Translations under genes and position numbers: made by a program
Notes under the pieces: model-generated
What the model saw: the letters and a program-made list of their open reading frames with translations, nothing else
Told to the model about the DNA's origin: nothing
Database searches by the model: none
Origin: Nitrosomonadales bacterium
Lineage (GTDB): Bacteria; Pseudomonadota; Gammaproteobacteria; Burkholderiales; Gallionellaceae
Direction of reading: 5' to 3'
Length of the DNA stretch: 64,000 bases
Assembly (NCBI GenBank): GCA_016208015.1
Contig: JACQYW010000015.1
Span: 43,903 to 107,902 of the forward strand
Part shown: positions 35,096-54,539 of the stretch, piece after piece
Numbering within the stretch: position 1 is the stretch's first letter
Layout of the letters: every line of letters begins with the position of its first letter

Positions 35096-35359
35096 ATGCA
35101 ACTTACTGAAAAACACAAGGAGTATTGGCAGAAGAATCTCCGCGTGACGGGAATATTGCTGGCGTTGTGGTTCATCGTCACTTTCGTCATCGGCTACTTC
35201 GCCAGAGACCTGCAATCCATCACCATCCTCGGCTTCCCATTCCCGTTCTACATGGGCGCACAGGGTTCGCTGGCGATCTATGTGGCAATCATCTGGTATT
35301 ACGCCCATTACATGAACAAGCTCGACAAAGAATATGGCGTACATGAAGGAGACGACTAA
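35096..35359 (+). CDS. DUF4212 small membrane subunit of a solute symporter
   Basis: YWQKNLR, GFPFPFYMGAQGS, MNKLDKEYGV. TAATG coupling. Confidence 0.88.
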   Translation: MQLTEKHKEYWQKNLRVTGILLALWFIVTFVIGYFARDLQSITILGFPFPFYMGAQGSLAIYVAIIWYYAHYMNKLDKEYGVHEGDD

Positions 35360-37523: not shown

Positions 37524-37680
37524 AATTTAGCCACGGATGGACACGGATTTACACGGATAAATACAAACCCAACGATATGCAGGGTGTTATCCGTGTTTCA
37601 TCCGCACCCGCAAGGGGTAGGCCGTGGTTGTACAGCCGCTGAAGCGGCAACAACCACGCACTGTGCATCCGTGGCTAATT
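37524..37680. repeat. Composite palindromic REP-like element
   Basis: 13-bp IR TTAGCCACGGATG (37527) / CATCCGTGGCTAA (37666); three (A/C)CACGGAT units at 10-bp period; nested internal hairpin. Confidence 0.7.
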
Positions 37681-37686
37681 AGGTTT

Positions 37687-38277
37687 TCAAACTGCCAGAT
37701 CGGCCACCATATAAGCCAGATCGGAACGCCCGGTATCCTGGATCAGGTGACGGGTCATGATGGGGTCGAAGCGGTGCAGGTACTTGATCACTTCGGTGAC
37801 GCGCTCCGGGTCGTTCAGGTGATGGTGGGCCATGCCCAGCGCATACCAGGCGTGCGGGTTCATCGGTTGCAGGTTCGCCGCTTCGTGCAGCGCCTTCGCG
37901 GCCTCGGCATGCTGGCCGAGTTTGGCATGGCAGATGCCCAGGCCGTACCAGGCGCGGTCGAATTGCGGATTCAAGCGCGTGGCCGATTGAAACGCGGTGA
38001 TCGCTTCCGCCAGTTCGCCCTGCTTGTCGCAGGCGTAACCCAGATTGAAGAGTATCTCGGCATTGTCCGGTTCGCTGTTCAGCACCTCGCGGAAATGCGT
38101 CGCGGCCTGGCCGAAGTCGTTGCGCTTGGCGTGGATGAAGGCCATGGCGAGGGTGGCGCGGGTGTACTCGGGTGCTGCCGCCAGCGTCAGCCGGTATTCG
38201 TCCAGCGCCGCATCTTCCTTGTTCATGAATTGGTAGAAGCGCGCGCGCAGCAGGTGTTGCCATTTTTCGTAGTTCAT
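37687..38277 (-). CDS. Tetratricopeptide-repeat protein
   Basis: Repeated TPR patterns (LFNLGYA, AWYGLGIC, AWYALGMA). Start trimmed to MNYEKW. Confidence 0.85.
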   Translation of the reverse strand: MNYEKWQHLLRARFYQFMNKEDAALDEYRLTLAAAPEYTRATLAMAFIHAKRNDFGQAATHFREVLNSEPDNAEILFNLGYACDKQGELAEAITAFQSATRLNPQFDRAWYGLGICHAKLGQHAEAAKALHEAANLQPMNPHAWYALGMAHHHLNDPERVTEVIKYLHRFDPIMTRHLIQDTGRSDLAYMVADLAV

Positions 38278-38391
38278 TGCAGTGACCCGTTGATGAAAGC
38301 AGGTGTCATTCTGCGCATTGCACACCGTGGCCGCAAGCATAATCGCCGCGAGGTGATAAAATCCGGGCTTGTTCAATCCAATCACAAAATC

Positions 38392-38703
38392 ATGTCATCT
38401 CCCGAACTGTTCGTCGTCAGCGTGCTGAAAGCGCTGGTCGAGGTCGCCGCTCTGGCATTGCTCGCCCAGGGTTTGATCGGTGTGCTGTCCGGCAAGGCGA
38501 AAGACAACAATTTCGTCTACCGGCTGTTCCAGGTCGTCACCGGCCCCATCTACAAGGGCGTGCGCAAGATCACGCCGAAGTTCATCGCCGAACAGCATAT
38601 CGGCCTGGTCAGTTTCTTCGTGCTGTTCTGGATCTGGATCGCGCTGATCTACGCCAAGGGCTATGTCTGCCACGCGCAGAATCTGGCCTGCGTCCCGAGC
38701 TGA
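38392..38703 (+). CDS. Small membrane protein, YggT-like
   Basis: 103 aa; [16 protein letters not shown] resembles the YggT NP-x-x-F...TxP motif; two TM segments. Confidence 0.6.
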
Positions 38704-38722
38704 ACATCGCCGCCGGGCGGAC

Positions 38723-39538
38723 ATGACTATCCCTAAACGCACCGTCATCTACGTGTCGGACGGCACCGGCATCACTGCCGAGACGCTGGGCCACGGCTTG
38801 CTCTCGCAGTTCGAGGGCATCGAATTCAAGCCCCTGCGTTTTCCGTTCCAGGATAGCGAAGACAAGGCCAGGGAGTGTGTGACACGTATCAATGAAGTGA
38901 CGCAGCGCGAAGGCGTGCATCCCATCGTCATCCTCACGCAGACCAACGCCGAACTCAGCGCCATCCTGCACCAAGCCGACGCCTTCTTCATCGACCTGTT
39001 CGATACCTTCATCGTGCCGCTGGAAAAGGAACTGGGCAGCCGCTACACCCGCGCCGTGGGCCGCTCTCACGGGCAGGCCAATCCGGAATACAACTCGCGC
39101 ATCGCCGCGATGAATTTCGCCCTGGCGCACGACGACGGCGTCTCGGATACCGACCTGAAGAGCGCCGACATCATCCTCGTCGGGGTATCGCGCAGCGGCA
39201 AGACGCCGACCAGTCTGTACCTCTCCCTGCAGTTTTCGCTCAGGGCCGCCAACTACCCGCTCATCCCGGAAGACTTCGAGCGCGGCCACCTGCCGTCGAG
39301 ATTGCAACCCTATCGCGACAAATTGTTCGGCCTCACCATCGATCCCGAGCAATTGCAGCGTATCCGCTTCGAGCGGCGCCCGAACAGCAAATATGCCTCG
39401 CTGGACAACTGCCGCTATGAAGTGGCGGCGGCGGAGAAGATGATGAAGCGCGAGGGCATCAAATGGTTCGACACCACCTCGCGCTCCATTGAGGAGCTGG
39501 CCGTGCAGTTGATGCAGGAACTCAAGCTCGAGCAGTGA
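38723..39538 (+). CDS. ppsR: PEP synthase regulatory kinase/pyrophosphorylase (DUF299)
   Basis: [31 protein letters not shown]. Confidence 0.93.
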
Positions 39539-40469
39539 GTTCCGCGGGCGACGATTTGATGCCGTAGACTTCGTACAGTATCTCGACGAAGCGCCGCGCC
39601 TGCGGCGACAGGAAACGCCCCTTGCGCAGGACCAGTCCGTAACCGCGCTGCGGGAAATATTGCTTGAGCGGGATGCGCACCAGTTTTTCGCTTCCGGTGA
39701 GGCAGATGTCGGTGACGATGGAGATGCCCATGCCCAGTTCGACGTATTTCTTGATGACTTCCCAGCCGCCCGCTTCCAGTGTCACGGTGAACGTCAGGTT
39801 GTGCTGCTGGAACACGTATTTCACCATGCGCCAGGTCGAGAGGTGGCGCGGCGGCAGGATCAGACCGTAATGGCTGATGTCTTCCAGTGTGACGCTGGAA
39901 TGCTTGGCCAGCGGATGGTCCAGCGGCACGATGAGCGCCGGGTCGTAAGTCACCACCGGCTGGTAGGTGATGTCGTCGGGTACGTCCAGCATGGAACCGA
40001 CCACCAGATCGATATCGTCGGCGCGCAGCATCTTCAGGCCGTCGCGCCCGGTCTCGTTGTGGATCTTGAGCTGGATGCGCGGGTGGGCGCTGACGAAACG
40101 GCGCACCGCTTCCGGCAATATATAAAGAATGGTGGATTCGCCCGCGCCGATGTTCAGTTCGCCGGAATCCAGTTTGCCGTGCTGTGCGGCGAAGTTCTCT
40201 TCCAGGCCGTCTATCCCCTTTACCAGCGGTTCCGACAGCGCAAACAAAGACTCGCCATCAGGAGTAAGCTTGAGCACGGGGCCGCGTCTTTCGAACAAGG
40301 TCACCCCCAGTTCCCGCTCCAGCGCCTGGATCTGCAACGTCACCGACGGCTGGCTCAGGAACAAATGCTGGGCGGCCAGAGTCACACTGCCGGTGCGAAC
40401 GACTTCGCAGAACGCACGCATCTGTTTGAGTCTGTTGTTTTTGTAGTAGCTTTGTTTTTCAGTGTTCAT
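39522..40469 (-). CDS. LysR-family transcriptional regulator, divergent from the rnf/por operon
   Basis: [28 protein letters not shown]; LTTR substrate-binding domain. Confidence 0.92.
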
Positions 40470-40697: not shown

Positions 40698-41582
40698 ATG
40701 AGTATTGTTTACAGCATTTTAGTCACAGGAGCCTTTATGGCCGGCCTCGGCGGCCTGCTGGCGATTCTGTTGGCTATTGCGAGCAAGAAGCTCTATGTCT
40801 TTGAAGACCCCCGTATCGAGCAAGTCGAAGAACTCCTTCCCCATTCCAATTGCGGCGCCTGCGGTACGGCAGGTTGCCATAACTTCGCCGAAAAGGCCGT
40901 CGCGGGCGAGATCGAGCCCGGCCGCTGCACGGTGAATACCCCCGACCAGAACAAGAACATCGCATCGTTGCTGGGTGTCGCCCTGGGCGATATCGAGAAA
41001 CGCGTGGCACGGTTGGCCTGCGCTGGCGGCAAGCATGTCGCCACGATGCGCGCCCAATACGCCGGACTTTCTTCCTGCCGCGCCGCGACCGTGGCAGGAG
41101 GCGGCGGCAAGAGCTGCGCCTGGGGTTGCCTCGGATTGGGCGATTGCGCCGACGTGTGCGATTTCGATGCCATCACCATGGATGTCCACGGTTTGCCGGT
41201 GGTCGACAGTGCCAAATGCACCGCCTGCGGCGACTGCGTCGATATCTGCCCGAAAGACCTGTTCTCGCTGCAAGTCATGTCGCATAAATTGTGGATGGCC
41301 TGCCGCAACGAAGAGAGCGATCCCGATGCCGCCGAAGCGGCTTGCGAAGTGGCCTGCACCGCCTGCGGGCGCTGCGTGGTCGACGGCGCTCCCGGCCTGA
41401 TCCATCTGGAACGCAATCTGGCCGTGATCGACTACGCCAAGAACGGGACAGCAAGCCGCGAGGCCATCGATCGCTGCCCCACCGGCGCCATCGTCTGGCT
41501 CGAGGGTGACCGCATCAGCAAAGGCAAAGCCGCAAAGAAAATCATCCGTATCGAACCATTACCTGCCACTACCGAGGCCTAG
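40698..41582 (+). CDS. rnfB: Rnf complex subunit B (polyferredoxin)
   Basis: N-terminal TM, LPHSNCGACGTAGC, CLGLGDCADVC, CTACGDCVDICP, CTACGRC...CPTGAI. Confidence 0.9.
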   Translation: MSIVYSILVTGAFMAGLGGLLAILLAIASKKLYVFEDPRIEQVEELLPHSNCGACGTAGCHNFAEKAVAGEIEPGRCTVNTPDQNKNIASLLGVALGDIEKRVARLACAGGKHVATMRAQYAGLSSCRAATVAGGGGKSCAWGCLGLGDCADVCDFDAITMDVHGLPVVDSAKCTACGDCVDICPKDLFSLQVMSHKLWMACRNEESDPDAAEAACEVACTACGRCVVDGAPGLIHLERNLAVIDYAKNGTASREAIDRCPTGAIVWLEGDRISKGKAAKKIIRIEPLPATTEA

Positions 41583-41590: not shown

Positions 41591-44500
41591 ATGCTGAACA
41601 AACTCAAACAATTCAAATTGGCTGGCGCCGCTACCGGAGCCGATGGCAGCCGCACCAAATTCAAGTACCCCGGCACGCGCGATGCCATCGACGGCAACAC
41701 CGCCGTGATCATGGTGGAACGCGAAGCCTCGCAGGGCGCGGGCGCCTACCCCATCACGCCGTCCACGCAGATGGGCGAATACTGGGCGGAAGAAGTCGCC
41801 AAGGGCCACCTCAATACGGCAGGTCACCCGCTGATCTTCGTCGAGCCGGAATCCGAACACGCTGCTGCCGGTGTCACTGCCGGCATGTCGATGACCGGTC
41901 TGCGCGCGGTCAACTTCACTTCCTCGCAGGGTCTGGCCTTCATGCACGAATCGCTGTATGCCGCCGTCGGCAAGCGTCTGCCCTATGTGCTCAACCTCGG
42001 TTGCCGCGCCATCACCAAGGCCTCGCTGAACGTGCACTGCGCGCATGACGACTACCACTGTGCCGACGATACCGGTTTCATCCAGGTGATGGGCAAGAAC
42101 GCGCAGGAAGCCGCCGACCTCAACATGATCGCCCGCAAGACCGCCGAACTGGCGCTGACCCCGGCCATCGTGGCGCAGGACGGCTTTCTCACCACCCACC
42201 TGATCGAGCCGATGCAGGTGCCGGAACGCGAACTGATCGCCGAATATCTGGGCAATGCCGACGACCTCATCGACACCCCGACCCCCGCGCAGCAGATGCT
42301 GTACGGTCCCAAGCGCCGCCGCGTGCCGTCGAGCTGGGACGTGGACAATCCCATGCAGACCGGCGTGGTGCAGAACCAGGACGCCTACATGCAGGCCGTG
42401 GCCGCGCAGCGTCCGTATTTCTTCGACCATATCCCGGCGCTGTTCGACAAGAACGCGGAAGAGTTCCATGAACTGACTGGCCGCCGCTACAACCGTGTCG
42501 ATGCCTATCGTTGCGACGACGCCGACTACATCATCCTCGGCCAGGGCAGCATGACCGTGCAGGCCGCCGCCGTCGCCGACTGGCTGCGCGAGACGCGCAA
42601 GATCAAGGTGGGCGTGGTCAACATCACCATGTTCCGTCCTTTCCCCGGCGATCTGCTGGGCCAGGTGCTGAAAGGCAAGAAGGGCGTGGCCGTGCTGGAA
42701 CGCACCGACCAGCCGCTGTCGGAAGACCTGCCGCTGATGCGCGAAGTGCGCTCCACCATCACCAAATGTGTAGAGAATGCGCGCGAGAATTCCTATGCCG
42801 ATTACGCCTGCTACGAGAGCGCCAAGGACATGCCGTCGCTGTACTCCGGCTGCTACGGTCTGGGTTCGCGTGACCTGCAACCGGAAGGCCTGATCGCCGC
42901 CGTCGAAAACATGCTGCCCGGCGCGGCGCACCGCAAGTTTTACTATCTGTCCGTCGACTTCGTGCGCGACGAATCCGCCAATCCGAAACAGGAGATCCGC
43001 CAGCAGGAACTGCAGACCGCCTATCCCGGCATCAAGGCGTTGGCGCTGCGCGGCTCCGAGAATCCCAACCTGTTGCCCAAGAACGCCATCGCCGTGCGCA
43101 TGCACTCCATCGGCGGCTGGGGCGCGGTGACCACCGGCAAGAACCTGGCGATGACGCTGTTCGAACTGCTGGGCTGGGACATCAAGGCCAATCCGAAATA
43201 CGGTTCCGAGAAGAAGGGACAGCCGACCACCTATTATCTGTCCGCCGCGCCCGAGCCCATCCGCATCAACTGCGAATACACCAACGTCGACGTGGTGCTG
43301 TCGCCGGACCCGCAAGTGTTCGGCCACACCAATGCGCTGGAAGGCATGAAAGAGGGCGGCGTGTTCATCATCCAGAGCAATCTGGACAGTGCGGAAGCAG
43401 TATGGGAGACCTTCCCCATGCGTACCCAGCAATACATCGTCGACAAGAAGATCCGCGTGTTCTACCTCGATGCGTTCAAGATCGCGCGCGAGGAGTCGAG
43501 CAATGCCGACCTGCAGTTGCGCATGCAGGGCAACGCCTTCCAGGGTGCGTTCTTCCATGCCTCCGACGTGAAGGACCGTGCCGGTCTGAGCGAAGAGACA
43601 TTGTTCACCGCCATCGAGAATCAGCTCGAATCCAAGTTCGGCAAGAAGGGCAAGCGCATCGTCGATGACAACCTGCGCGTGGTGCGCCGCGGTTATGAGG
43701 AGATGTTCGAGATCAAGCCGGAGCAGATGAAGGTAGGCCAGCGCGCCAAGGTCGTGGGCAAGCCGGCTCCCGCGCTGCCCGTCATGCTGAAGCAACTGCC
43801 GGAAGGCGACGGCGGTCTCTCCGACATCCACCGTTTCTGGGAACAGACCGGCAGCTTCTACATGAAGGGCCAGGGTTCCGACAACCTGGTCGATCCGTTC
43901 ATGGGGCTGTCCGTCATCCCGGCCGTGACCGGTGTGTATCGCGACATGACGGGTGTGCGTTTCGAACATCCCGAGTGGAACGCGGAGAACTGCACCGCCT
44001 GCGGCGAATGCTTCACGCAATGCCCGGACAGCGCTATCCCCGGTCTGGTCTCGACCACCACCGATGTGCTGAATACCGCCATCCAGAACATCGAGATCGG
44101 CGGGCGTCCGACGCGTTTCCTGCGCAAGTTCAGCCGCGTCATCGACAAGAAATTGCGCAACGCGCTGGACAAGGACGGACTCGATGTGCGCGCGCTGCTG
44201 GCCAACGCCATCACCGAGGCGTTCGCGGAAGACCCGACCCAGGGTGACGACCGCGGCCGTCTGGAAGCGGAACTGAATCTGCTGCGCGAAGCGATCGGCG
44301 GCTTCAAGTTCGCCACGACCAAACCGTACTGGAACCAGAAAGAGAAGAAGGAGAAGGGCGCCGGCGGCCTGTTCTCCATCACCGTCAATCCCTATACCTG
44401 CAAGGGCTGCGCCTTGTGCGTGGAAGTGTGCGACGACGATGCGCTGAAGATGGTCACGCAGACCAAGGAGAGCATCGAGACGCTGCGCGACGACTGGAAC

Positions 44501-46522
44501 TTCTGGCTCGACCTGCCGACCACGCCGCCGCAATACAGCCGCATCGACGACCTGGACGAGAAGGTCGGCGCGCTGGAAACACTGCTGCTGGACAAGCACA
44601 ACTACCAGTCGCTGGCCAGCGGCGACGGTGCCTGCCTCGGTTGCGGCGAGAAGGGCACCATCCACCTGTTCACCAGCACGGTCACCGCGCTGCAGCAGCC
44701 GCGCGTGAAGAAGTTCCTCGGCAAGCTGGATACGCTGATCTCCGGTCTGGAGAACCATATCCGCACGAAGCTGAGCAGCTCGGTCGACCTGACCGACACG
44801 CAGGCGCTCATGCAAGCCGTGCAGGCGCACAGCGGGCACGATCTGACACTGGCCAACCTGTCGGAAAGCCTGTTGCAGAAACATCCGGGCCAGCCTATCG
44901 ATCCGCAATGGCTCAAGCGCGTGAGCCAGATGCTGGAGAAACTGAAGGACCTGCGCTGGCGTTATATGGAAGGCCCGAGCAAGAAGGGGCGCGCCGAGAT
45001 GGGTATCGTCAACTCGACCGGTTGCACCTCGGTGTGGGCATCCACTTTCCCGTTCAATCCCTACCCCTTCCCGTGGACATCGCACCTGTTCCAGGATTCG
45101 CCCTCGGTGGCGATGGGCGTGTTCGAAGGTCACATGGCCAAGATGGCGGAAGGTTTCAAGACCGTGCGCCAGGCCGAGAAAGAACTCGCGGGCGGATATG
45201 AGCCTGCCGAGAGCGACGACTTCTTCGCCCGCTTCAACTGGGAGCAGTTCAGCGAGGAAGAATGGCATCTGTGCCCGCCGGTCGTGGCGATGGGCGGCGA
45301 TGGCGCGATGTTCGACATCGGCTTCCAGAACCTGTCGCGCGCCCTGATGTCGGGCAAGCCGGTCAAGATCCTGATCGTCGACACGCAGGTGTATTCCAAC
45401 ACCGGCGGCCAGGCTTGCACCTCCGGCTTCATCAGCCAGGTGGCAGACATGTCGCCCTACGGCGCAAGCAAGCACGGCAAGACCGAGAAGCGCAAAGAGA
45501 TCAGCATCATCGGCATGGCTCACCGCACCTCGTTCGTGGCGCAGGGCGCGCTGTCCAACACCACGCACCTGCTGGAGAGCTTCATCGACGGCATCAACAG
45601 CCGTCACCCGGCATTGTTCAACGTGTACGCGGTATGCCCGCCGGAACACGGCGTCGGCGACAACAGTGCGGTGGCGCAAAGCAAGATGGCGGTGGAATCG
45701 CGCGCCTTCCCGCTGTTCCGCTACAACCCCGATCTGGGCGTGACCTTCTCCGAATGCGCCACGCTCGAAGGCAACCCGTCACTGGATGCCGACTGGCCGA
45801 CCTACAAGCTCGAGTATGCGGACGAGAGCGGCAACAAGCAGACGATGATGCTGCCGATGACCTTCGCCGATTTCGCGCTGAGCGAAGGACGTTTCGCCAA
45901 ACAGTTCAAGAAGGCGCCGCCGGAGACCTGGAACGACGACATGGTGCTGCTGGGCGATTTCCTCGAGCTGTCCGAGGACGAGCGCGAGGGCAAGTTCCCC
46001 TTCATCTGGTCGGTGGACAAGAAGAACCGCCTGATGCGCGTGCTGACCTCGGTGGAGATGGTGCGTGCCTGCGAGGAGCGTCTGCAGTTCTGGCACCAAC
46101 TGAAGGATGTGGCCGGTGTTGGCCGGGCCCGGGTCGGTGCAGTCGACGAAACGGCCATCGCCAACCGCGTGCGCCAGGAGCTTATCCAGAAGCTGTCTTC
46201 CGGTCTGGGCATCAGCTCCAGCGATGCGCCACAAGCAACCGCGGCCGCGTCACCCGCGGCAGCTGCGGGCGGTTACGAGGCCGTGTACGTGGACACACCG
46301 GAATGCACCGCCTGCGACGAATGCATCAACATCAACCCGAAAGTGTTTGCCTACAATGAAACGAAAAAAGTCGTTGTGCTCGACCCGAAGGCGGGCAGTT
46401 ATCTGGATCTCGTCAAAGCGGCGGAAAAGTGCACAGCCGGCATCATCCATCCCGGCACGCCCTGGAACATGAGCGAGGCGAATCTGGACAAACTGAAAGC
46501 GCGTGCGGCCAAGTTCAACTGA
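41591..46522 (+). CDS. por: Single-chain pyruvate:ferredoxin/flavodoxin oxidoreductase (1643 aa) with extra C-terminal ferredoxin domain
   Basis: YPITPST, CRAIT, CTACGECFTQCP, CKGCALCVEVC, GACLGCGE, TGC, GGDGAMFDIG...YSNTGGQ (TPP site); C-terminal CTACDEC...C. Confidence 0.92.
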   Translation: MLNKLKQFKLAGAATGADGSRTKFKYPGTRDAIDGNTAVIMVEREASQGAGAYPITPSTQMGEYWAEEVAKGHLNTAGHPLIFVEPESEHAAAGVTAGMSMTGLRAVNFTSSQGLAFMHESLYAAVGKRLPYVLNLGCRAITKASLNVHCAHDDYHCADDTGFIQVMGKNAQEAADLNMIARKTAELALTPAIVAQDGFLTTHLIEPMQVPERELIAEYLGNADDLIDTPTPAQQMLYGPKRRRVPSSWDVDNPMQTGVVQNQDAYMQAVAAQRPYFFDHIPALFDKNAEEFHELTGRRYNRVDAYRCDDADYIILGQGSMTVQAAAVADWLRETRKIKVGVVNITMFRPFPGDLLGQVLKGKKGVAVLERTDQPLSEDLPLMREVRSTITKCVENARENSYADYACYESAKDMPSLYSGCYGLGSRDLQPEGLIAAVENMLPGAAHRKFYYLSVDFVRDESANPKQEIRQQELQTAYPGIKALALRGSENPNLLPKNAIAVRMHSIGGWGAVTTGKNLAMTLFELLGWDIKANPKYGSEKKGQPTTYYLSAAPEPIRINCEYTNVDVVLSPDPQVFGHTNALEGMKEGGVFIIQSNLDSAEAVWETFPMRTQQYIVDKKIRVFYLDAFKIAREESSNADLQLRMQGNAFQGAFFHASDVKDRAGLSEETLFTAIENQLESKFGKKGKRIVDDNLRVVRRGYEEMFEIKPEQMKVGQRAKVVGKPAPALPVMLKQLPEGDGGLSDIHRFWEQTGSFYMKGQGSDNLVDPFMGLSVIPAVTGVYRDMTGVRFEHPEWNAENCTACGECFTQCPDSAIPGLVSTTTDVLNTAIQNIEIGGRPTRFLRKFSRVIDKKLRNALDKDGLDVRALLANAITEAFAEDPTQGDDRGRLEAELNLLREAIGGFKFATTKPYWNQKEKKEKGAGGLFSITVNPYTCKGCALCVEVCDDDALKMVTQTKESIETLRDDWNFWLDLPTTPPQYSRIDDLDEKVGALETLLLDKHNYQSLASGDGACLGCGEKGTIHLFTSTVTALQQPRVKKFLGKLDTLISGLENHIRTKLSSSVDLTDTQALMQAVQAHSGHDLTLANLSESLLQKHPGQPIDPQWLKRVSQMLEKLKDLRWRYMEGPSKKGRAEMGIVNSTGCTSVWASTFPFNPYPFPWTSHLFQDSPSVAMGVFEGHMAKMAEGFKTVRQAEKELAGGYEPAESDDFFARFNWEQFSEEEWHLCPPVVAMGGDGAMFDIGFQNLSRALMSGKPVKILIVDTQVYSNTGGQACTSGFISQVADMSPYGASKHGKTEKRKEISIIGMAHRTSFVAQGALSNTTHLLESFIDGINSRHPALFNVYAVCPPEHGVGDNSAVAQSKMAVESRAFPLFRYNPDLGVTFSECATLEGNPSLDADWPTYKLEYADESGNKQTMMLPMTFADFALSEGRFAKQFKKAPPETWNDDMVLLGDFLELSEDEREGKFPFIWSVDKKNRLMRVLTSVEMVRACEERLQFWHQLKDVAGVGRARVGAVDETAIANRVRQELIQKLSSGLGISSSDAPQATAAASPAAAAGGYEAVYVDTPECTACDECININPKVFAYNETKKVVVLDPKAGSYLDLVKAAEKCTAGIIHPGTPWNMSEANLDKLKARAAKFN

Positions 46523-46547
46523 TATGAAATTGCATATTCAAATCGAC

Positions 46548-46673
46548 CGTCATTCCGGCGCAGGCCGGAATCCAGGTGATTCAATATCTCCCGCGCAGCG
46601 GGACAAAGCCTTGGTTTCGTCCGCTTCGCGGAGGTATTTTTCTGGCTGGATACCGGCCTGCGCCGGTATGACG
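46548..46673. repeat. 126-bp palindromic REP-like element between por and rnfC
   Basis: CGTCATTCCGGCGCAGGCCGGAATCCAG / CTGGATACCGGCCTGCGCCGGTATGACG (28-bp IR, 2 mismatches), plus an inner stem. Confidence 0.8.
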
Positions 46674-46700
46674 AAGTTTTGTGCGAATGATTGAATTGGG

Positions 46701-48047
46701 ATGAATATGCGACTGCCCTTCTTCCATCGCGCGGCGACCTTTGAGCACGGTATCCATCCGGACTACCACAAGGAGACCGGGAGCCTGCCGATCAAGCGCC
46801 TGGCTTTTGCGCCGCGCCTGATCGTGCCGCTGTCGCAGCACATCGGCAAACCTGCCGTGTGTTGCGTCAGCGTGGGAGAAGAAGTTTTGCGCGGCCAGGT
46901 CATCGCGACGGCGGATGGTTTCGTCTCGCTGCCCGTGCATGCCCCGGCGACCGGTGTGGTGGAAGCCATCGGCGTGATGCCCGCAGCCAACGGCAAGATG
47001 GTGGATTCCATCACCCTCCGCGTGTACGAGGCCGACAGCCAGCAAGTGCAGGTGAGCGCTCCGCGCGATATCGAAGCGATGGACAAGAAGGAACTGCTGG
47101 CCGCGATCCAGAGCACCGGCATCTCCGGTCTGGGCGGCGCGACCTTTCCCGCGCACGTGAAGCTCAGCGTGCCGCCGGATGTCGTGATCGACACCATGGT
47201 CGTCAACGGCGCCGAATGCGAACCCTTCCTGACCTGCGACCACCGCATCATGGTGGAGCGCACCAAGGACCTGATCCGCGGCATCCGCATCGCGATGAAG
47301 GTCAGCGGTGCGCCGCGCACCATCATCGGTGTCGAAGACAACAAGCCGGATGCCATCGCCGCGATCCGGGCGGCATTGCCCGCCGACGGCACGATCACGG
47401 TGCAGGCGCTGGAGACCAAATATCCGCAGGGCGCGGAAGACACCATCATCTACGCGCTGCTCGGGCGCGAGATCCCCGCCGGTCAGCGTCCTGCCTCCAT
47501 CGGCGTGCTGGTGAACAACGTGATGACGCTGGCTTATCTGGGTCGCCTGCTGCCCGCGGGCGAAGGCATCGTCGAGCGCGTGCTCACCGTGGCCGGTCCC
47601 GGCGTGGAAAAGCCCGGCAACTACATCGTTCCCATCGGCACCCCGTTGCGCTTCCTGCTCGAACAGGTCGGTGCAAAGAGCAGCGCGCAGGAGATCATCC
47701 TCGGCGGGCCGATGATGGGCATGACCATCTCGTCGCTGGACGTGCCGGTGACCAAGGGCACTTCCGGTGTACTCGCCTTCGGCAAGGGCGAATTGCAGGA
47801 GGAAACGCCGCGCGTCTACGCCTGCATCAAGTGCGGCGAATGCCTCAAGGTGTGCCCGAAGTTCCTCAATCCCTCGCAACTCGGCTTGCTGGCGGCCAAG
47901 CGCGAATATGCCGAGATGGCCGAGCGCTACAACCTGGACCGCTGTTTCGAGTGCGGCTGCTGCAGCTACGTCTGCCCGTCGCATATTCCGCTGGTGCAAC
48001 AGTTCCGCATCGCCAAAGCGGTCAATAGAGAGAAAGCCTCAGCATGA
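46701..48047 (+). CDS. rnfC: Rnf subunit C
   Basis: PLSQHIGKP, GLGGATFP, NGAECEPFLTCD, KYPQGAE, GGPMMG, CIKCGEC, CFECGCCSYVCPS. Confidence 0.95.
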   Translation: MNMRLPFFHRAATFEHGIHPDYHKETGSLPIKRLAFAPRLIVPLSQHIGKPAVCCVSVGEEVLRGQVIATADGFVSLPVHAPATGVVEAIGVMPAANGKMVDSITLRVYEADSQQVQVSAPRDIEAMDKKELLAAIQSTGISGLGGATFPAHVKLSVPPDVVIDTMVVNGAECEPFLTCDHRIMVERTKDLIRGIRIAMKVSGAPRTIIGVEDNKPDAIAAIRAALPADGTITVQALETKYPQGAEDTIIYALLGREIPAGQRPASIGVLVNNVMTLAYLGRLLPAGEGIVERVLTVAGPGVEKPGNYIVPIGTPLRFLLEQVGAKSSAQEIILGGPMMGMTISSLDVPVTKGTSGVLAFGKGELQEETPRVYACIKCGECLKVCPKFLNPSQLGLLAAKREYAEMAERYNLDRCFECGCCSYVCPSHIPLVQQFRIAKAVNREKASA

Positions 48048-49084
48048 GCATGGAACTCCGTACCTCCCCGCATCAAATAAGCGACCGCAGCGTCGAACGC
48101 ATCATGAAGCACGTGGTGCTGTCGCTGCTGCCGGTCTGCGGATTCTCGATCTGGCAATACGGCCTGTCGGCACTGGCGCTGTTGCTGACCGTGACCGCGA
48201 CCTGTCTTGCCACCGAGCGCCTGCTCAATCGTGCCGCCAGCCAGCCGAGCACGCTGAACGACTGGAGCGCCACCATCACCGGCGTGCTGCTGGCGCTGAC
48301 GCTGCCGCCCGCGTTCCCGCTGTGGATGGCGGTCGTCGCCGGTTTTGTCGCCATCGCCATCGGCAAGGCGCTGTTCGGCGGACTGGGCTTCAACGTGTTC
48401 AACCCGGCGCTGATCGGCCGCGCTTTCGTGCAGGCCGCTTTCCCGGTCGCCATCACCACCTGGGTCCCGGCGTTCTCGGCGCAACGCTTCAGCGAGTTCG
48501 TACCGACCACGCTGACCGCGCCGCTGATGATGCCGCCCGATATCGTCGAATGGATCAAGCTGCAAGCCGTCGATGCCTTCACCGGCGCGACGCCGCTGGC
48601 GCGCTGGAAGTTCGAGAACGTGGTCGCCTCTTCCTATGACTTGCTGACCGGTGTCGTGACCGCTTCCGCAGGCGAGACCTCGGCCATCCTCATCCTGTTG
48701 TGCGGCGCTTACCTCGCCGCACGCAAATTCATGGACTGGCGCATCCCGGTGGCGGTGCTGGCTTCGGCTGCACTCACCGCGTGGATGTTCCAGCTGTACG
48801 ACCCGACCCACTACCCCGCACCGAGCTTCGTGCTGCTCTCCGGCGGTCTGATGCTGGGCGCGGTGTACATGGCGACCGACATGGCGACCTCGCCGGTGAC
48901 GCCGCTGGGTGTGTGGATCTACGGCGCGGTGATCGGCGTGGTGACGGTGATGATCCGTTATTTCGGCGGCCTGACCGAGGGGGTGATGTACGCCATTCTG
49001 CTCGGCAACGCGCTGACCCCGTTCATCGACCTGTACACGCAGCCGCGCGTGTTCGGGACCCGCCAGCAAGGGAAGAAAAAATGA
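48044..49084 (+). CDS. rnfD: Rnf subunit D
   Basis: SPH, FGGLGFNVFNPA, DAFTGATPL (FMN-Thr), GETS, MATD. Confidence 0.95.
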   Translation: MSMELRTSPHQISDRSVERIMKHVVLSLLPVCGFSIWQYGLSALALLLTVTATCLATERLLNRAASQPSTLNDWSATITGVLLALTLPPAFPLWMAVVAGFVAIAIGKALFGGLGFNVFNPALIGRAFVQAAFPVAITTWVPAFSAQRFSEFVPTTLTAPLMMPPDIVEWIKLQAVDAFTGATPLARWKFENVVASSYDLLTGVVTASAGETSAILILLCGAYLAARKFMDWRIPVAVLASAALTAWMFQLYDPTHYPAPSFVLLSGGLMLGAVYMATDMATSPVTPLGVWIYGAVIGVVTVMIRYFGGLTEGVMYAILLGNALTPFIDLYTQPRVFGTRQQGKKK

Positions 49085-49758
49085 GCGAGCCGACCCAAGT
49101 TCAAGTGACGCCAAGCGGCAAGATGATCGCCACCATGGCGCTGGTCGCCAGCATCTGTGGCGTGCTCATCGTCGGCGCCTTCGAGGGCACGCAGGATGCG
49201 ATCGCCGAGAACAAACGCATCATGCTCGAGCGCGCCGTGTTCAAAGTGTTGCCCGGAGCGGCGAGCGTGCGTGAATACGCCGCGACGAGCGCCGGTATCC
49301 GGCAGCTGGCAGCGGGCGCAGCCTTGCCGGAAGGCGGCGTGAAGTTCTATGCCGCTTACGACCAGGCCGGTGTGCTGAAAGGTGTCGCCGCCGAAGCCGC
49401 CGGCAAGGGTTATGCCGACGTGGTGCGCGTGCTTTACGGTTATGACGCGGAACGCCAGGTCATCATCGGGATCGGCGTGGTGTCCATGCGCGAAACACCG
49501 GGCATCGGCGACAAGATCATCACCGACCAAGCGTTCCTGAAGAACTTCGAGGCATTGGATGTGCGCGTGAATGCCGAGCTGACGGCGCTGGCCAATGCGG
49601 TGAAAGTCGTCAAGCACGGCAGCAAGACCGATCCGTGGCAGATCGATGCCATCGCCGGTGCGACGGTGACTTCCAAAGCGGTCGGTCGCGGCATCAACGA
49701 CAGCGCGCAGAAACTGCTGCCGCTGCTGGTCCCCCATATCGCGGAGTTGAAATCATGA
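49081..49758 (+). CDS. rnfG: Rnf subunit G
   Basis: N-terminal TM, GKGY, ETPGIG, IDAIAGATVTS (FMN site). Confidence 0.93.
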   Translation: MSEPTQVQVTPSGKMIATMALVASICGVLIVGAFEGTQDAIAENKRIMLERAVFKVLPGAASVREYAATSAGIRQLAAGAALPEGGVKFYAAYDQAGVLKGVAAEAAGKGYADVVRVLYGYDAERQVIIGIGVVSMRETPGIGDKIITDQAFLKNFEALDVRVNAELTALANAVKVVKHGSKTDPWQIDAIAGATVTSKAVGRGINDSAQKLLPLLVPHIAELKS

Positions 49759-50390
49759 GCCTGCCCAATCAAGCCGACGAAGGCATCACCTTCGACACCT
49801 TCATGGAAGGCGTGTGGCGCCAGAACCCGGTGTTCGTGATGGTGCTGGGCATGTGCCCGACGCTGGCGGTCACCGTCTCCGCCGTCAACGGCCTGTCGAT
49901 GGGCGTCGCCACCCTGTTCGTGCTGGTCAGTTCCTGTCTGCTGGTGTCGCTGATCCGCCACCTGGTGCCCAAGGAAGTGCGCATCGCCACCTACATCGTG
50001 ATCATCGCCACTTTCGTGACGCTGGTCGATTACCTGATCCAGGCGGCCAGTCTGGCCCTGTATGAAGCACTGGGCGCGTTCATCCAGCTGATCGTGGTCA
50101 ACTGCATCATCCTCGGCCGCGCCGAAGCGCACGCGTCGAAGAACCCGCCGCTGAAAGCCGTGATCAACGCGCTGGGCATGGGCGTCGGTTTCGCCATCGG
50201 CCTGTTCGCGCTGGGCGCGACGCGCGAGATCCTGGGGGCGGGCAAGCTGTTCGGCATCACGCTGTTCGGCGAGAATTTCCAGCCCTGGGTGGTGATGGTG
50301 TTGCCGCCGGGCGGCTTCTTCGTGCTGGGCGGCTGGCTGTTGCTGTTCTCGCTGCTGCGCAGCCGCAAGGAAGGGAAGGTGCAGGCATGA
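49755..50390 (+). CDS. rnfE: Rnf subunit E
   Basis: QNPVF...LGMCPTLA, LIVVNCIILGRAE, PPGGF. Confidence 0.95.
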   Translation: MSLPNQADEGITFDTFMEGVWRQNPVFVMVLGMCPTLAVTVSAVNGLSMGVATLFVLVSSCLLVSLIRHLVPKEVRIATYIVIIATFVTLVDYLIQAASLALYEALGAFIQLIVVNCIILGRAEAHASKNPPLKAVINALGMGVGFAIGLFALGATREILGAGKLFGITLFGENFQPWVVMVLPPGGFFVLGGWLLLFSLLRSRKEGKVQA

Positions 50391-50971
50391 ACGAATCATT
50401 GAGCCAGATATTCATCGGCACGCTGCTGACCAACAACTTCGTGCTGGCCATGTTCCTCGGTCTGTGCCCCTTCCTTGGCGTATCGAGCCGTCTGGGCACC
50501 GCGGTTCCGATGGGCGCGGCGACGACCTTCGTGATGCTGGTCGCGTCGGTGTGCGCCTACGCGCTGAACCTGCTGCTGAACTATTTCCAGCTCGAATTCC
50601 TGCGCCTGATCTCCTACATCGTGGTGATCGCTTCTTCGGTGCAACTGGTCGAGATGGTGATGAAGAAGTACAGCCCGGCGCTGTTCCGCGCGCTCGGCAT
50701 CTTCCTGCCGCTGATCACCACCAACTGCGCGGTGCTGGCGGTGGCGCTGTTCCAGACCGCGCGCGAATACAGTTTCTCGCAATCGCTGGTGTTCGCGCTC
50801 GGCGGCGGTGCCGGCTTCACGCTGGCGCTGGTGCTGATGGCCTCGCTGCGCGAGCGCTTGCAACTCTCCAACGTGCCGACGCTGGTGCAGGGCACAGCGC
50901 TATCGCTGATCCTGGCGGGCCTGCTGTCGCTGACCTTCATGGGCTTCGCCGGATTGGGAGCGGGCGAATGA
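50387..50971 (+). CDS. rnfA: Rnf subunit A
   Basis: NNFVLAMFLGLCPFLG, LGIFLPLITTNCAVL. Confidence 0.95.
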   Translation: MNESLSQIFIGTLLTNNFVLAMFLGLCPFLGVSSRLGTAVPMGAATTFVMLVASVCAYALNLLLNYFQLEFLRLISYIVVIASSVQLVEMVMKKYSPALFRALGIFLPLITTNCAVLAVALFQTAREYSFSQSLVFALGGGAGFTLALVLMASLRERLQLSNVPTLVQGTALSLILAGLLSLTFMGFAGLGAGE

Positions 50972-51153
50972 TCTATTTGAAAACGATACTGATCGTACTG
51001 GGCCTGCTGGCCGGCTGGCTGGTCGTGCGCGCCATCGCGCGCCGCTTCGCCGCGCATCATCCCGAGTTCGGCGCGGTGCGCGAAGAGGGTGAAGGCTGCG
51101 GCTGCGGCAACCACAAGTGCGGCACCGACCAGTGCAAGCGCGAGGCGCATTGA
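50968..51153 (+). CDS. 61-aa membrane microprotein with Cys-rich C-terminal tail
   Basis: ATGA overlap with the rnfA stop; MIYLKTILIVLGLLAGWLVVRAIARR...GCGCGNHKCGTDQC. Confidence 0.7.
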   Translation: MIYLKTILIVLGLLAGWLVVRAIARRFAAHHPEFGAVREEGEGCGCGNHKCGTDQCKREAH

Positions 51154-51207: not shown

Positions 51208-53583
51208 ATGCAACCGTACGTCATTCCTTTCCAGTCTCTGGGAATCGCAGACATCCCGGAAGTGGGCGGAAAGAACGCATCGCTCGGAGAGATGATCTCC
51301 AACCTGAGTTCATCCGGCGTCCATGTGCCCGGCGGTTTCGCTACCACGGCACAGGCATACCGTGATTTTCTGGCGCATGACGGACTGGACAAACGCATCG
51401 AACAGGCGCTGGTCAAACTGAACATCGAGGATGTCACCGCGCTGGCCGAAGCCGGTCGCATGATCCGCAACTGGATCGTCGAAGCGCCGCTGCCCAAGCG
51501 ACTGGAAGACGAGATCCGCACCCACTACGCCAAGCTGGCCGCGGAAGGCGAAGGCAGCTTCGCGGTGCGTTCGTCGGCGACGGCAGAAGACCTGCCGGAC
51601 GCTTCGTTCGCTGGACAGCAGGAGACTTTCCTGAACATCCAGGGCATCGAGAACATCCTGCACGCGATCCGCGAAGTGTTCGCCTCGCTGTACAACGACC
51701 GCGCGATCTCTTACCGCGTGCACAAAGACTTTACGCATGCCGACGTGGCGCTGTCCGCCGGGGTGCAGCGCATGGTGCGTTCCGATCTGGGCGCGTCCGG
51801 CGTGTTGTTCACGCTGGATACCGAATCCGGTTTCCGCGACGCGGTGTTCGTCACTTCGTCTTTCGGTCTGGGCGAGATGGTAGTGCAGGGTGCGGTGAAT
51901 CCGGACGAGTTCTATGTGCACAAACAGCAACTGGCTGCGGGCTATCCGGCTGTCATCCGCCGCGCGCTGGGTTCCAAACAACAACGCATGGTGTTCGATG
52001 AGCAGCGTTCAGCCGGGCGTTCCTGCCGCATCGAACCGGTGCCGGTCGCCGACCAGCAGCGCTTCTCGCTCAGCGATGAAGACGTGCTGCAACTGGCACG
52101 CTACGCGGTCTCCATCGAGAAGCACTACGGGCGTCCGATGGACATCGAGTGGGGCAAGGACGGCATCGACGGCAAGCTCTACATCCTGCAAGCGCGCCCC
52201 GAGACGGTGAAGTCGAACGCGGGCAACGGCGGCACGGAGAAATTCCGCCTGCACCAGCGCGGCACCGTGCTGGTCGAAGGCCGCGCCATCGGCCAGAAGA
52301 TCGGCTCCGGCCGCGTGCGCATCGTCGCCAGCACCGCCGAGATGGACAAGGTGCAGGAAGGCGACGTGCTGGTCACCGACATGACCGACCCGAACTGGGA
52401 GCCGGTGATGAAGAAGGCTGCCGCCATCATCACCAACCGCGGCGGCCGCACCTGCCATGCCGCCATCATCGCGCGCGAACTGGGCATCCCCGCCATCGTC
52501 GGTTGCGGCCATGCCACCACCGCCTTGCAGGAAGGCGAGACCGTCACCGCCTCCTGTGCCGAAGGTGACACCGGTTACGTCTATCACGGCAAGCTGAATT
52601 TTGAAGTGGCCGTGCACAGCGAAGAAGAACTGCCGCCCATTCCCGTCAAGCTCATGCTCAATGTGGGCAATCCCACGCTGGCCTTCGAGTTCGCGCAACT
52701 GCCGTCGGCGGGCGTCGGTCTGGCGCGCCTCGAATTCATCATCAACAACCTCATCGGCATCCACCCCAAGGCGGTGCTGGAGCACAACAAGCTGCCGGCC
52801 AAACTTCACGAAGCCGTGCTGCAACGCTCGGCGGGTTACGCCAGCCCCGAGGAGTTCTACGTCGAGAAGATCACCGAGGGCGTGTCCACACTGGCGGCCG
52901 CGTTCTGGCCCAAGCCCGTGATCGTGCGCATGTCCGACTTCAAGTCGAACGAATACCGCAAGCTGATCGGCGGCGATATCTACGAGCCGATGGAAGAGAA
53001 CCCGATGATCGGTTTCCGCGGCGCGGGCCGTTACGTCGCGGCGAATTTCTCGGATTGTTTCGAATTGGAATGCCGCGCGATGAAGCGTGCGCGCGAGAAG
53101 CTCGGCTACACCAACATCGAGCTGATGATCCCCTTCGTGCGCACCGTCAAGGAAGCGAGCGAAGTCGTCTCCACGCTGGCCAAGCACGGTCTGAAACGCG
53201 GCGACAAAGGCCTGCGCCTGATCATGATGTGCGAGATCCCGTCCAACGCGCTACTGGCGGAAGAGTTCCTGCAACACTTCGACGGCTTCTCCATCGGCTC
53301 CAACGACCTGACCCAGCTCACGCTCGGTCTGGACCGCGACTCCAGCCTGGTGGCGGACCGCTTCGACGAGCGCGACCCGGCGGTGAAGGCATTGCTGAAG
53401 ATGGCGATCACGACCTGCAACCGTCTGGATAAATACGTGGGCATCTGCGGACAGGGCCCATCCGATCATTTCGATTTCGCCGAGTGGCTGGTTGAAGCAG
53501 GCATACAGACCATGTCGCTGAACCCGGACACGGTCATCGAGACCTGGCGCAGATTGGCCGAGAAAGGAATTGCCAAGCCTTAA
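51208..53583 (+). CDS. ppsA: Phosphoenolpyruvate synthase
   Basis: [50 protein letters not shown]. Confidence 0.97.
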
Positions 53584-53686
53584 AAACTTGGCGACCACGG
53601 CAGCCGGATCCGGGTGAGTCCGGCTGCAGTAACCTCCAACCGGGCACGCAATGTGCGCGGTATCACCCAGTAAGTGTTTTCCTCTG

Positions 53687-53734
53687 CCCCTCCCCCATCC
53701 CACTCTCCCCTTTTGGGGGGAGGGGTCTTTTTTT
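53687..53734 (+). terminator. Terminator/REP-like hairpin after ppsA
   Basis: CCCCTCCCCC...GGGGGAGGGG followed by a T-run. Confidence 0.6.
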
Positions 53735-54231: not shown

Positions 54232-54233
54232 GT

Positions 54234-54530: not shown

Positions 54531-54539
54531 AGTCGAATA

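Follow-up and report, generated by a model that had tools for sequence, protein, structure and literature searches.

Known PFOR and Rnf systems and the locus under study

Textbooks present pyruvate:ferredoxin oxidoreductase (PFOR) and Rnf as enzymes of anaerobes that are linked by a diffusible ferredoxin. The 64,000-nucleotide stretch of DNA analyzed here (referred to below as the window), which comes from the Nitrosomonadales bacterium assembly GCA_016208015.1 (Gallionellaceae; contig JACQYW010000015.1, positions 43,903 to 107,902), encodes the two as one genetic unit, in which a 1643-amino-acid (aa) PFOR-like protein appears to carry its own covalently tethered ferredoxin. The hosts of this enzyme type are iron and sulfur oxidizers, for the most part microaerophilic or aerobic, among them important iron oxidizers of the environment and animal symbionts. 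An initial annotation, made from the letters of the sequence, had pictured the protein as a pyruvate-specific PFOR with two large inserts and a built-in swinging electron carrier that replaces soluble ferredoxin, the inserts possibly docking to Rnf or shielding the clusters from O2. The tethered carrier and the link to Rnf are supported by the analysis described below; what the inserts do, which substrate is used, and whether free ferredoxin is replaced are matters that we infer from sequence.

The diversity of PFORs was reviewed in November 2026, when one-, two-, four-, and five-subunit enzymes assembled from domains I to VII were distinguished (PMC13768988); that review contains no enlarged form, tethered ferredoxin, or Rnf-embedded type, and an Rnf-embedded PFOR is likewise unmentioned in a 2025 review of Rnf and Nqr. 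A pangenome study of Gallionellaceae found Rnf and ferredoxin to be ubiquitous in iron oxidizers and called their function unknown. A closely related system that has been described is the rnf2 operon of the Solemya velum gill symbiont, which has the same gene order, rnfB-PFOR-rnfCDGEA, and whose PFOR (our locus L112) is orthologous to the window protein, with 66% identity. Dmytrenko et al. (2014) noted the PFOR gene between rnfB2 and rnfC2 and suggested that pyruvate is perhaps an electron donor for that Rnf, but the enlarged architecture, the tethered ferredoxin, and the distribution of the enzyme were not described (PMC4287430).

The chains of PFOR, free ferredoxin, and Rnf in Acetobacterium woodii, Clostridium tetanomorphum, and Thermotoga maritima perform the same three functions as the window module, and the RnfB protein of the window belongs to the polyferredoxin type known from anaerobes and methanogens. 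However, the anaerobe chains rely on a diffusible ferredoxin and on unlinked genes, whereas in the window the ferredoxin is part of the enzyme and the enzyme gene lies inside the rnf operon; the hosts of the window type, unlike those of the anaerobe chains, are mostly O2-respiring lithotrophs.

Catalytic core and cluster ligands

Judged from its sequence, the window protein retains intact the catalytic core and the three-cluster electron wire of an ordinary PFOR. Its Pfam domains follow in the order POR_N (residues 50 to 276), PFOR_II (311 to 392), POR/gamma (508 to 703), Fer4 (793 to 816), Fer4 (931 to 954), TPP_enzyme_C (1230 to 1344), and Fer4_13 (1567 to 1620). Domains I-II-III-IV-V-VI thus occur on one chain in the canonical order, collinear with the closest solved structures identified by a sequence search of the PDB, the PFORs from Moorella thermoacetica (6CIN, E value of 3e-91) and Desulfovibrio africanus (1B0P, E value of 2e-77). 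HMMER aligned residues 31 to 825, 922 to 1028, 1137 to 1177, and 1231 to 1383 with residues 4 to 710, 727 to 822, 829 to 876, and 961 to 1108, respectively, of the 6CIN chain. The window protein shares with 1B0P (1231 aa), 6CIN (1171 aa), and NifJ the domain order, the motif that binds thiamine pyrophosphate (TPP) and Mg, the YPITP and YSNTGGQ motifs, the 12 cluster cysteines, and the contact residues.

Conservation was assessed in an alignment with 46 relatives that are 58 to 90% identical to the window protein. All 12 Cys ligands of the three [4Fe-4S] clusters are invariant in this set (residues 801, 804, 807, 811, 937, 940, 943, 947, 1015, 1018, 1145, and 1349, with Cys1349 at the aligned position of the fourth proximal-cluster ligand), and so are the TPP/Mg motif GGDGAMFDIG (residues 1235 to 1244) and YSNTGGQ (residues 1268 to 1274), both of which align with 6CIN and 1B0P. 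The two CxxCxxCxxxC motifs are separated by 136 codons, compared to ∼56 in the D. africanus PFOR, and Cys1018 (nucleotide 44642) is separated from Cys1145 by 127 codons, compared to 25 between the aligned Cys815 and Cys840 of D. africanus. Translation and alignment to 6CIN and 1B0P thereby confirmed the open reading frame (ORF), the cluster-motif coordinates, and the unusual spacings that had been reported in the initial annotation. The same is true of the assignment of substrate residues: Thr56 (in YPITPST), Arg139 (in CRAIT), and Asn1270 (in YSNTGGQ) align with Thr31, Arg114, and Asn996 of the D. africanus enzyme, whose role in pyruvate contact we take to be established by structural work on 1B0P/2C42.

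A separate peculiarity of domain I is the sequence NVHCAHDDYHC (residues 149 to 157, positions 42035 to 42061) in the place where canonical PFORs read SIFGDHxDxxA. Residues His149, His152, Asp153, Asp154, Tyr155, His156, and Cys157 are invariant in a seven-sequence alignment, and this segment could provide an additional site for metal binding or redox chemistry close to the active site.

Inserts and the extra C-terminal domain

The window protein is ∼410 to 470 aa longer than the structurally characterized enzymes. It contains two helical inserts, which lie inside domains V and VI, as well as an extra C-terminal domain and the tethered ferredoxin. With respect to 6CIN, ∼80 aa are added by insert 1, ∼102 aa by insert 2, and ∼197 aa at the C terminus, and ∼88 further residues are spread over the N-terminal two-thirds. 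Both inserts and the ferredoxin noted in the initial annotation are present but do not make up the whole of the extra length; a folded domain of ∼137 aa (residues ∼1403 to 1539) that precedes the linker had been overlooked. A Foldseek search of the PDB with this domain returned no significant neighbor.

Structure prediction, proposed in the initial annotation as a check, yielded helical inserts, a disordered linker, and a confident ferredoxin fold. In the AlphaFold2 (AF2) models, insert 1 forms five helices with predicted local distance difference test (pLDDT) scores of 70 to 85, and insert 2 consists of one 46-residue helix and three shorter ones. The model of residues 444 to 1643 is mediocre (pLDDT of 68), and only its local secondary structure and disorder were considered, not the way in which its domains pack; its nearest PDB folds are PFORs, with a template modeling (TM) score of only ∼0.35, which is low because the model lacks domains I and II and the cofactors. 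The idea that the inserts provide electrostatic docking surfaces was dropped: they are basic in the window protein (isoelectric points of 9.0 and 9.75), and their charge is not conserved among the 46 relatives (−6 to +4 for insert 1 and −9 to +5 for insert 2).

A ferredoxin module on a disordered tether

The evidence from sequence comparison and structural modeling supports the view that the C-terminal module is a genuine ferredoxin carried on a disordered tether, much as the initial annotation had proposed. Residues 1567 to 1620 match the Pfam family Fer4_13 with a score of 30.6 bits (gathering cut-off, 24.5), and the tail alone matches ferredoxin I of D. africanus (1DAX) with an E value of 1.5e-4. 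The module is modeled with pLDDT scores of 85 to 96, and its best Foldseek match is the same ferredoxin I (1FXR; TM score of 0.77, root mean square deviation of 1.6 Å, 38% identity), with further matches to Desulfovibrio gigas FdII and the ferredoxins from T. maritima, Pyrococcus furiosus, and Bacillus thermoproteolyticus. The CxxCxxC...C ligands Cys1572, Cys1575, Cys1578, and Cys1614 are invariant in all 46 relatives. The ligands, the Fer4_13 assignment, and the fold are common to D. africanus ferredoxin I and the monocluster ferredoxins of D. gigas (FdII), T. maritima, and P. furiosus, from which the window module differs in not being free-standing, in being only weakly acidic (net charge of −1 together with the terminal helix; median of −1 over the 46 relatives), in carrying an extra basic C-terminal helix, and in lacking a Pro residue after the fourth Cys.

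The linker is a low-complexity segment made up of Ala, Gly, Pro, Ser, and Asn, without conserved sequence. The alignment slice that contains it (residues 1528 to 1565) comprises 38 aa in the window protein and ranges from 38 to 81 residues across the relatives, and its mean column identity is 0.46, compared to 0.77 for the ferredoxin. The linker is disordered in the AF2 model of residues 444 to 1643 and also in that of residues 1384 to 1643. The latter (260 aa) combines a pLDDT of 86.7 with a predicted TM score (pTM) of 0.52; such a low pTM despite the high pLDDT suggests two confidently folded domains without a fixed mutual position.

Two known systems offer partial parallels. The pyruvate:NADP+ oxidoreductase (PNO) of Euglena and Cryptosporidium is also a PFOR with its own electron acceptor fused at the C terminus. 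In PNO, however, the fusion partner is a flavoprotein, a domain similar to NADPH-cytochrome P450 reductase, whereas in the window protein it is a Fer4_13 ferredoxin, and Pfam detected no flavodoxin, FAD-binding, or NAD-binding domain in the 1643-aa chain. The swinging lipoyl domains in the E2 subunits of 2-oxoacid dehydrogenases likewise place a small carrier on an Ala/Pro-rich linker within a pyruvate-oxidizing machine, but this is an analogy only, as the fold and the chemistry (lipoamide versus an Fe-S cluster) are unrelated.

No free-standing ferredoxin gene is encoded within the 64-kb window, in agreement with the initial annotation, which had found none nearby. Elsewhere in the genome there are at least 5 small free ferredoxins; the tethered module may possibly replace soluble ferredoxin.

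Conservation and distribution of the long PFOR

The long PFOR layout is real and is conserved in hundreds of bacterial species. Both inserts, the 12 cluster Cys residues, and the four ferredoxin Cys residues are kept across the 46 aligned relatives, which places the architecture far beyond chance, and insert 1 was found by tblastn in 87 of 93 loci. Mean column identity is highest in the catalytic domains (0.79 to 0.84), followed by the ferredoxin, the segment from residue 1384 to 1530 (0.69), insert 2 (0.64), insert 1 (0.61), and the linker.

A word-indexed search retrieved more than 100 clusters (at 90% identity) of proteins that are 1633 to 1667 aa long and 73 to 100% identical to the window protein; those with names belong to Sideroxydans lithotrophicus (91%), Sideroxyarcus, Gallionella, Ferrigenium, Thiobacillus, and Hydrogenophilales. 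When each species was represented by a single genome, a pattern scan detected at least 600 stretches, of which at least 580 were confirmed. The counts of related loci given below are based on the best 80 of these stretches, which represent named relatives. They include Gallionellaceae, Thiobacillus, Hydrogenophilus, Rhodocyclaceae (Sulfuritalea, Sulfurisoma, and Dechloromonas), Methylophilaceae, Rhodoferax, Sedimenticola, Thiodiazotropha, Thiothrix, Chromatiaceae (Allochromatium, Thiocapsa, and Marichromatium), Ectothiorhodospiraceae, and symbionts of Solemya and Lamellibrachia. More distant full-length members are labeled as Methylococcaceae and as a "Deltaproteobacteria" metagenome-assembled genome (MAG). 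Of 300 other genomes sampled evenly from the GTDB class, 12 encode an ortholog of full or nearly full length. The window gene is the sole PFOR-like gene of its own genome.

Placement within an operon for a distinct Rnf

The link to Rnf is supported by the position of the enzyme gene within the rnf operon, as seen from the gene order, the short spacing, and the related loci. Matches to Pfam and NCBIfam models place all six Rnf subunit genes (B, C, D, G, E, and A) in a single cluster with the order rnfB-[PFOR]-rnfCDGEA. The rnfB start carries the Shine-Dalgarno sequence GGGGAGAG, and the PFOR-like gene starts 8 nucleotides past the rnfB stop, with GGGGGAA ahead of its start. Among the 80 loci, rnfB is located directly upstream of the enzyme gene in 74 of the 76 that have enough flanking sequence, and rnfC directly downstream in 64 of 66. 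These rnf-linked loci span Gallionellaceae, Thiobacillus, Rhodocyclaceae, Methylophilaceae, Chromatiaceae, Sedimenticola, and the symbionts.

Sequence comparisons indicate that the Rnf of the window is a separate subtype. The genome (2.57 Mb in 18 contigs) encodes three rnf clusters, on contigs C8 (positions ∼51975 to 57335), C9 (∼5915 to 11280), and C11, which includes the window. The other two have the proteobacterial order rnfABCDGE and encode RnfB proteins of 191 to 197 aa, to which the window RnfB is only 26 to 27% identical. The window RnfB contains 20 Cys residues, including three extra cluster-like motifs, and its best NCBIfam models are PRK07118 and the methanogen-type RnfB, not RsxB. 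The C9 cluster is ∼8 kb from nifH (C9:18908 to 19723), an arrangement that resembles the nif-linked Rnf1 of Azotobacter. A specific NifJ-like role of the window enzyme in feeding nitrogenase is considered unlikely, given that nifH lies on contig C9, beside that different rnfABCDGE cluster.

Other genomes of the class encode, between rnfB and rnfC, a paralogous "long PFOR" that is 28 to 30% identical to the window protein; five such loci were examined (L027, L028, L029, L030, and L031). In L028 (G084:C44, positions 2148 to 19057), the order is a NuoF-like gene, a two-subunit 2-oxoacid:ferredoxin oxidoreductase (OFOR; 638 + 351 aa), an 828-aa PFOR-like protein, rnfB, a 1506-aa PFOR-like protein, and rnfCDGEA. 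The 1506-aa protein keeps the ∼100-aa insert 2 (as seen by tblastn and BLASTP) and both CxxCxxCxxxC motifs, and its insert-1 region is collinear in the alignment and goes undetected on its own. Because this protein lacks the GACxGC and TGC cysteines of the proximal cluster as well as the GDG and YSNTGGQ motifs, its TPP domain is dead. The 828-aa protein encoded upstream of rnfB resembles residues ∼995 to 1545 of the window protein, lacks the cluster Cys residues, and has at its end a Fer4_13 ferredoxin sharing 53% identity with the window module. The two-subunit OFORs of the paralogous operons are KorAB-like. The extra domain of residues 1403 to 1539 is present in both catalytically dead paralogs, and a homologous tethered ferredoxin is encoded in all five paralogous operons, albeit on a different polypeptide. 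The retention of insert 2 in dead paralogs and of the ferredoxin in all five loci suggests that the scaffold with the ∼100-aa insert and a tethered ferredoxin both accompany this Rnf subtype, even where other proteins perform the catalysis. The retained insert lends indirect support to a structural or electron-wire function of the inserts. These dead paralogs provide the main, indirect argument that the extra parts serve the connection to Rnf rather than catalysis.

Proposed reaction, its partner, and its direction

On balance, we favor, with moderate confidence, the view that the window encodes a catalytically intact, most probably pyruvate-acting PFOR of a long clade, whose ferredoxin is tethered and which is hard-wired to a special Rnf subtype. 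In the proposed mechanism, the tethered ferredoxin would swing between the distal cluster of the enzyme and the polyferredoxin RnfB of the co-translated Rnf, so that the interconversion of pyruvate plus coenzyme A (CoA) and acetyl-CoA plus CO2 would be coupled to NAD+/NADH and to a transmembrane ion gradient, independently of the free ferredoxin pool. The coupled reaction would be reversible, as it is expected to be close to equilibrium in a respiring cell. In the pyruvate synthase direction, acetate would be converted to acetyl-CoA, pyruvate, and phosphoenolpyruvate (PEP), and a reversed Rnf would provide the low-potential electrons.

We lean slightly toward this direction, i.e., an Rnf-driven pyruvate synthase that feeds PEP synthase in the assimilation of C2 into C3 compounds. 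The lean is based on the presence of pyruvate dehydrogenase (PDH; aceE, encoding its E1 component, scores 1506 bits), a true acetate-CoA ligase (Acs), and acetate/monocarboxylate permeases, on the lack of isocitrate lyase, and on the location of ppsA at the end of the operon. No isocitrate lyase was found in the genome beyond a partial PrpB-like match. That match, located in a 300-aa frame beside a prpE-like gene, extends over only 104 of the 526 positions of the profile and is read as PrpB-like, not as a sign of a glyoxylate shunt.

Pyruvate is the likely substrate, judging from the contact residues, the match to PorA models, and the linkage to ppsA and to the gene for the PEP synthase regulatory kinase/pyrophosphorylase (PSRP). 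The alpha domain scores 218 bits with PorA models, 137 bits with VorA, and 32 bits with KorA.

Several observations weigh against the favored view. The protein scores 423.5 bits with the PFOR equivalog model NCBIfam TIGR02176, below its cut-off of 911.35. The EKR motif, which defines linker domain IV of PFOR (PMC13768988), is missing: in the alignment, YRDMTG stands where 6CIN has YE-KRG and 1B0P has FEKRG. The window gene thus differs from those of 1B0P, 6CIN, and NifJ in lying inside an rnf operon, in lacking EKR, and in scoring under half of the equivalog cut-off. RDMT at the EKR position is the consensus of the family in the 46 relatives. Since the protein fails on the equivalog score and the EKR motif, though all catalytic features are kept, it is classified from its sequence as a PFOR variant and not as a NifJ ortholog. 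A MAG of Dechloromonas aromatica (L077, positions 7244 to 12235) carries a full-length 1663-aa ortholog with the ferredoxin tail away from rnf genes, between genes for an MFS transporter and an alanine racemase; this is the sole locus without both rnfB and rnfC among ∼70 informative ones, and it means that the enzyme can exist without a co-encoded Rnf. In 29 of the 80 loci, rnfA is followed by a gene for a PetH-type (plant-type) ferredoxin-NADP+ reductase (FNR), e.g., the 286-aa protein encoded directly after rnfA at positions 19706 to 20566 of L101, so that Rnf may not be the sole partner of the tethered ferredoxin; in the window, ppsA is found there instead. The proximity of ppsA also fits a branch point of pyruvate utilization, such as growth on lactate or pyruvate, and is compatible with either direction. 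Thiocapsa has the long PFOR type plus a glyoxylate shunt, and the C2-assimilation argument therefore does not generalize. Finally, the literature search turned up no biochemical study of the long PFOR, only the one-sentence remark of 2014 (PMC4287430), and nothing usable on expression in Sideroxydans or Allochromatium.

The oxidative direction is almost as plausible as the synthase direction, with a probability that we place a little short of even. Pyruvate derived from glycogen, lactate, or import would then be oxidized under low O2 in place of PDH, with energy conserved as an ion gradient via Rnf. Genome papers on Gallionellaceae read their PFOR in this way (PMC10734482, PMC13664910), lactate use has been reported for a Sideroxydans strain (PMC10734482), and an MctC/ActP-like monocarboxylate symporter is encoded upstream of the operon. 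On the other hand, PDH is present, the downstream ppsA suits the flow from acetyl-CoA to pyruvate and PEP at least equally well, and an aerobe has few sources of reduced ferredoxin besides a reversed Rnf, although none of these points is decisive.

A different partner seems rather unlikely. The tethered ferredoxin could be a general output or input port that serves several soluble systems (FNR/NADP+, further enzymes that depend on ferredoxin, or the free ferredoxin pool), and Rnf could share the operon simply because it, too, deals with electrons of low potential, without any specific channeling to RnfB. The frequent FNR genes, the stand-alone copy in L077, and the free small ferredoxins of the window genome are all compatible with simple co-regulation of this kind. 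It fits less well with the near-universal and translationally tight placement of the enzyme gene between rnfB and rnfC, with the special type of RnfB that always accompanies the enzyme, and with the retention of the tethered ferredoxin in paralogous operons whose PFOR-like proteins are catalytically dead.

At the opposite extreme, the long PFOR might be a true accessory subunit of the distinct Rnf subtype, its inserts and C-terminal domain docking on RnfB/RnfC at the membrane and its swinging ferredoxin replacing the free pool, in a supercomplex that would act, mostly in O2-respiring lithotrophs, as an ion-translocating pyruvate:NAD+ oxidoreductase or as a pyruvate synthase driven by NADH and the gradient. 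We regard this bolder version as speculative and quite unlikely.

A substrate other than pyruvate (2-oxoglutarate, 2-oxobutyrate, a branched-chain 2-oxoacid, or a broad range of 2-oxoacids) seems decidedly improbable. It would be in line with the sub-cut-off equivalog score, the missing EKR motif, and the KorAB-like OFORs of the paralogous operons, but not with the conserved equivalents of D. africanus Thr31, Arg114, and Asn996, the preference of the alpha domain for PorA models, or the presence of ppsA and its regulatory kinase in the cluster. Least probable of all is a static fourth cluster, i.e., a C-terminal ferredoxin that is permanently packed and lengthens the internal wire while the linker serves as a surface strap: domain VII of the D. 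africanus PFOR, a C-terminal extension that wraps the enzyme, is a precedent (PMC13768988) and the conserved basic terminal helix could anchor the module, but constant length would be expected of a fixed strap, whereas the linker varies about two- to threefold in length without a conserved sequence, and its pLDDT is below 50 in two models, with a low pTM despite the high pLDDT.

If the favored coupling of a tethered-ferredoxin PFOR to Rnf is correct, these bacteria could make pyruvate from acetyl-CoA and CO2 at the expense of NADH and membrane potential, which would amount to heterotrophic fixation of CO2 and would allow C2 compounds to be assimilated in the absence of a glyoxylate shunt; alternatively, pyruvate oxidation would save the energy that pyruvate dehydrogenase wastes. 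Either would provide a reason why Gallionellaceae keep Rnf genes. A PFOR with a tethered carrier would likewise be of use in attempts to engineer aerobes for ferredoxin-dependent CO2 fixation.

Gene neighborhood

The features of the locus are listed in Table 1.

Table 1. Coordinates of the PFOR-like gene, its predicted parts, and the neighboring genes in the window
Feature	Positions	Strand	Evidence or remark
PSRP, PEP synthase regulatory kinase/pyrophosphorylase	38663..39538	+	Pfam Kinase-PPPase, 2.4e-77
Divergent LysR-family regulator	39522..40469	-	Pfam HTH_1 + LysR_substrate
rnfB, polyferredoxin type, 294 aa from ATG at 40698	40698..41582	+	Pfam FeS + Fer4
PFOR-type OFOR with predicted tethered ferredoxin	41591..46522	+	Uninterrupted ORF, 1643 aa
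Domains I, II, and III (half of TPP/pyruvate site, core domain II, CoA domain), residues ∼50-703	41738..43699	+	Pfam
First CxxCxxCxxxCP motif, CTACGECFTQC, Cys801/804/807/811	43991..44026	+	Invariant in 46 relatives
Insert 1, residues ∼823-921, helical bundle between the two cluster motifs	44057..44353	+	Not in 6CIN or 1B0P
Second CxxCxxCxxxC motif, CKGCALCVEVC, Cys937/940/943/947	44399..44431	+	Invariant in 46 relatives
GACLGC, proximal-cluster ligands Cys1015 and Cys1018	44627..44644	+	Aligns to 1B0P GACSGC; invariant
Insert 2, residues ∼1030-1136, long-helix insert between proximal-cluster ligands	44678..44998	+	Residues 1028-1137 align to 6CIN 822-829
TGC, Cys1145, third proximal-cluster ligand	45023..45025	+	Aligns to D. 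africanus Cys840; invariant
TPP-binding domain VI core, residues 1230-1383, with GGDGAM, YSNTGGQ (Asn1270), and Cys1349	45278..45739	+	Pfam TPP_enzyme_C; alignment to 6CIN 961-1108 and 1B0P
Extra C-terminal alpha/beta domain, residues ∼1403-1539 (∼137 aa)	45797..46207	+	AF2 pLDDT >95
Predicted flexible Ala/Pro/Gly/Ser linker, residues ∼1540-1561	46208..46273	+	AF2 pLDDT below 50-60, no secondary structure
Single-cluster ferredoxin module, residues 1562-1625 (Cys1572/1575/1578/1614), and conserved basic C-terminal helix, residues 1626-1643 (...DKLxxRAAKFN)	46274..46519	+	Pfam, PDB, Foldseek
REP-like long hairpin in 178-bp spacer	46523..46700	+	Minimum free energy of −88 kcal/mol
rnfC, 448 aa, short form	46701..48047	+	Pfam RnfC_N, Complex1_51K, SLBB, Fer4; TIGR01945, 491 bits
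rnfD	48044..49084	+	Pfam NQR2_RnfD_RnfE; overlaps rnfC stop
rnfG	49081..49758	+	Pfam FMN_bind; ATG at 49081 overlaps rnfD stop
rnfE	49755..50390	+	Pfam Rnf-Nqr; ATG at 49755 overlaps rnfG stop
rnfA	50387..50971	+	Pfam Rnf-Nqr; overlaps rnfE stop
ppsA, phosphoenolpyruvate synthase	51208..53583	+	NF005057, 1229 bits; TIGR01418, 1149 bits

The core of the hairpin in the spacer between the PFOR-like gene and rnfC, CCGGCGCAGGCCGG, occurs in 39 copies in the genome, and this hairpin might cause the mRNA level of the enzyme to differ from that of rnfCDGEA. Downstream of the operon, ppsA follows rnfA in 14 of the 80 related loci, including those Gallionellaceae loci that have sufficient downstream flank, and a PSRP gene is located near the operon in several related loci. 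The LysR-family regulator, which has only sub-threshold matches in NCBIfam (the best being to the CysB family), is represented by 54 to 93% identical copies located divergently upstream of rnfB in ∼28 of the 80 loci. A 61-codon ORF without a Pfam match (positions 50968 to 51153) overlaps the rnfA stop.

Farther upstream, two sodium/solute symporters (positions 29767 to 31848 and 35359 to 37446), one of them MctC/ActP-like and the other of the VC_2705 family, flank an OmpR-type two-component system (positions 32736 to 34875, reverse strand). The two-component system and the VC_2705-type symporter are shared with the Sideroxyarcus loci L042 and L051. A 359-aa ORF (positions 37624 to 38703), situated between the second symporter and PSRP, has no match in Pfam or NCBIfam but has 50 to 55% identical counterparts in two Sideroxyarcus loci.

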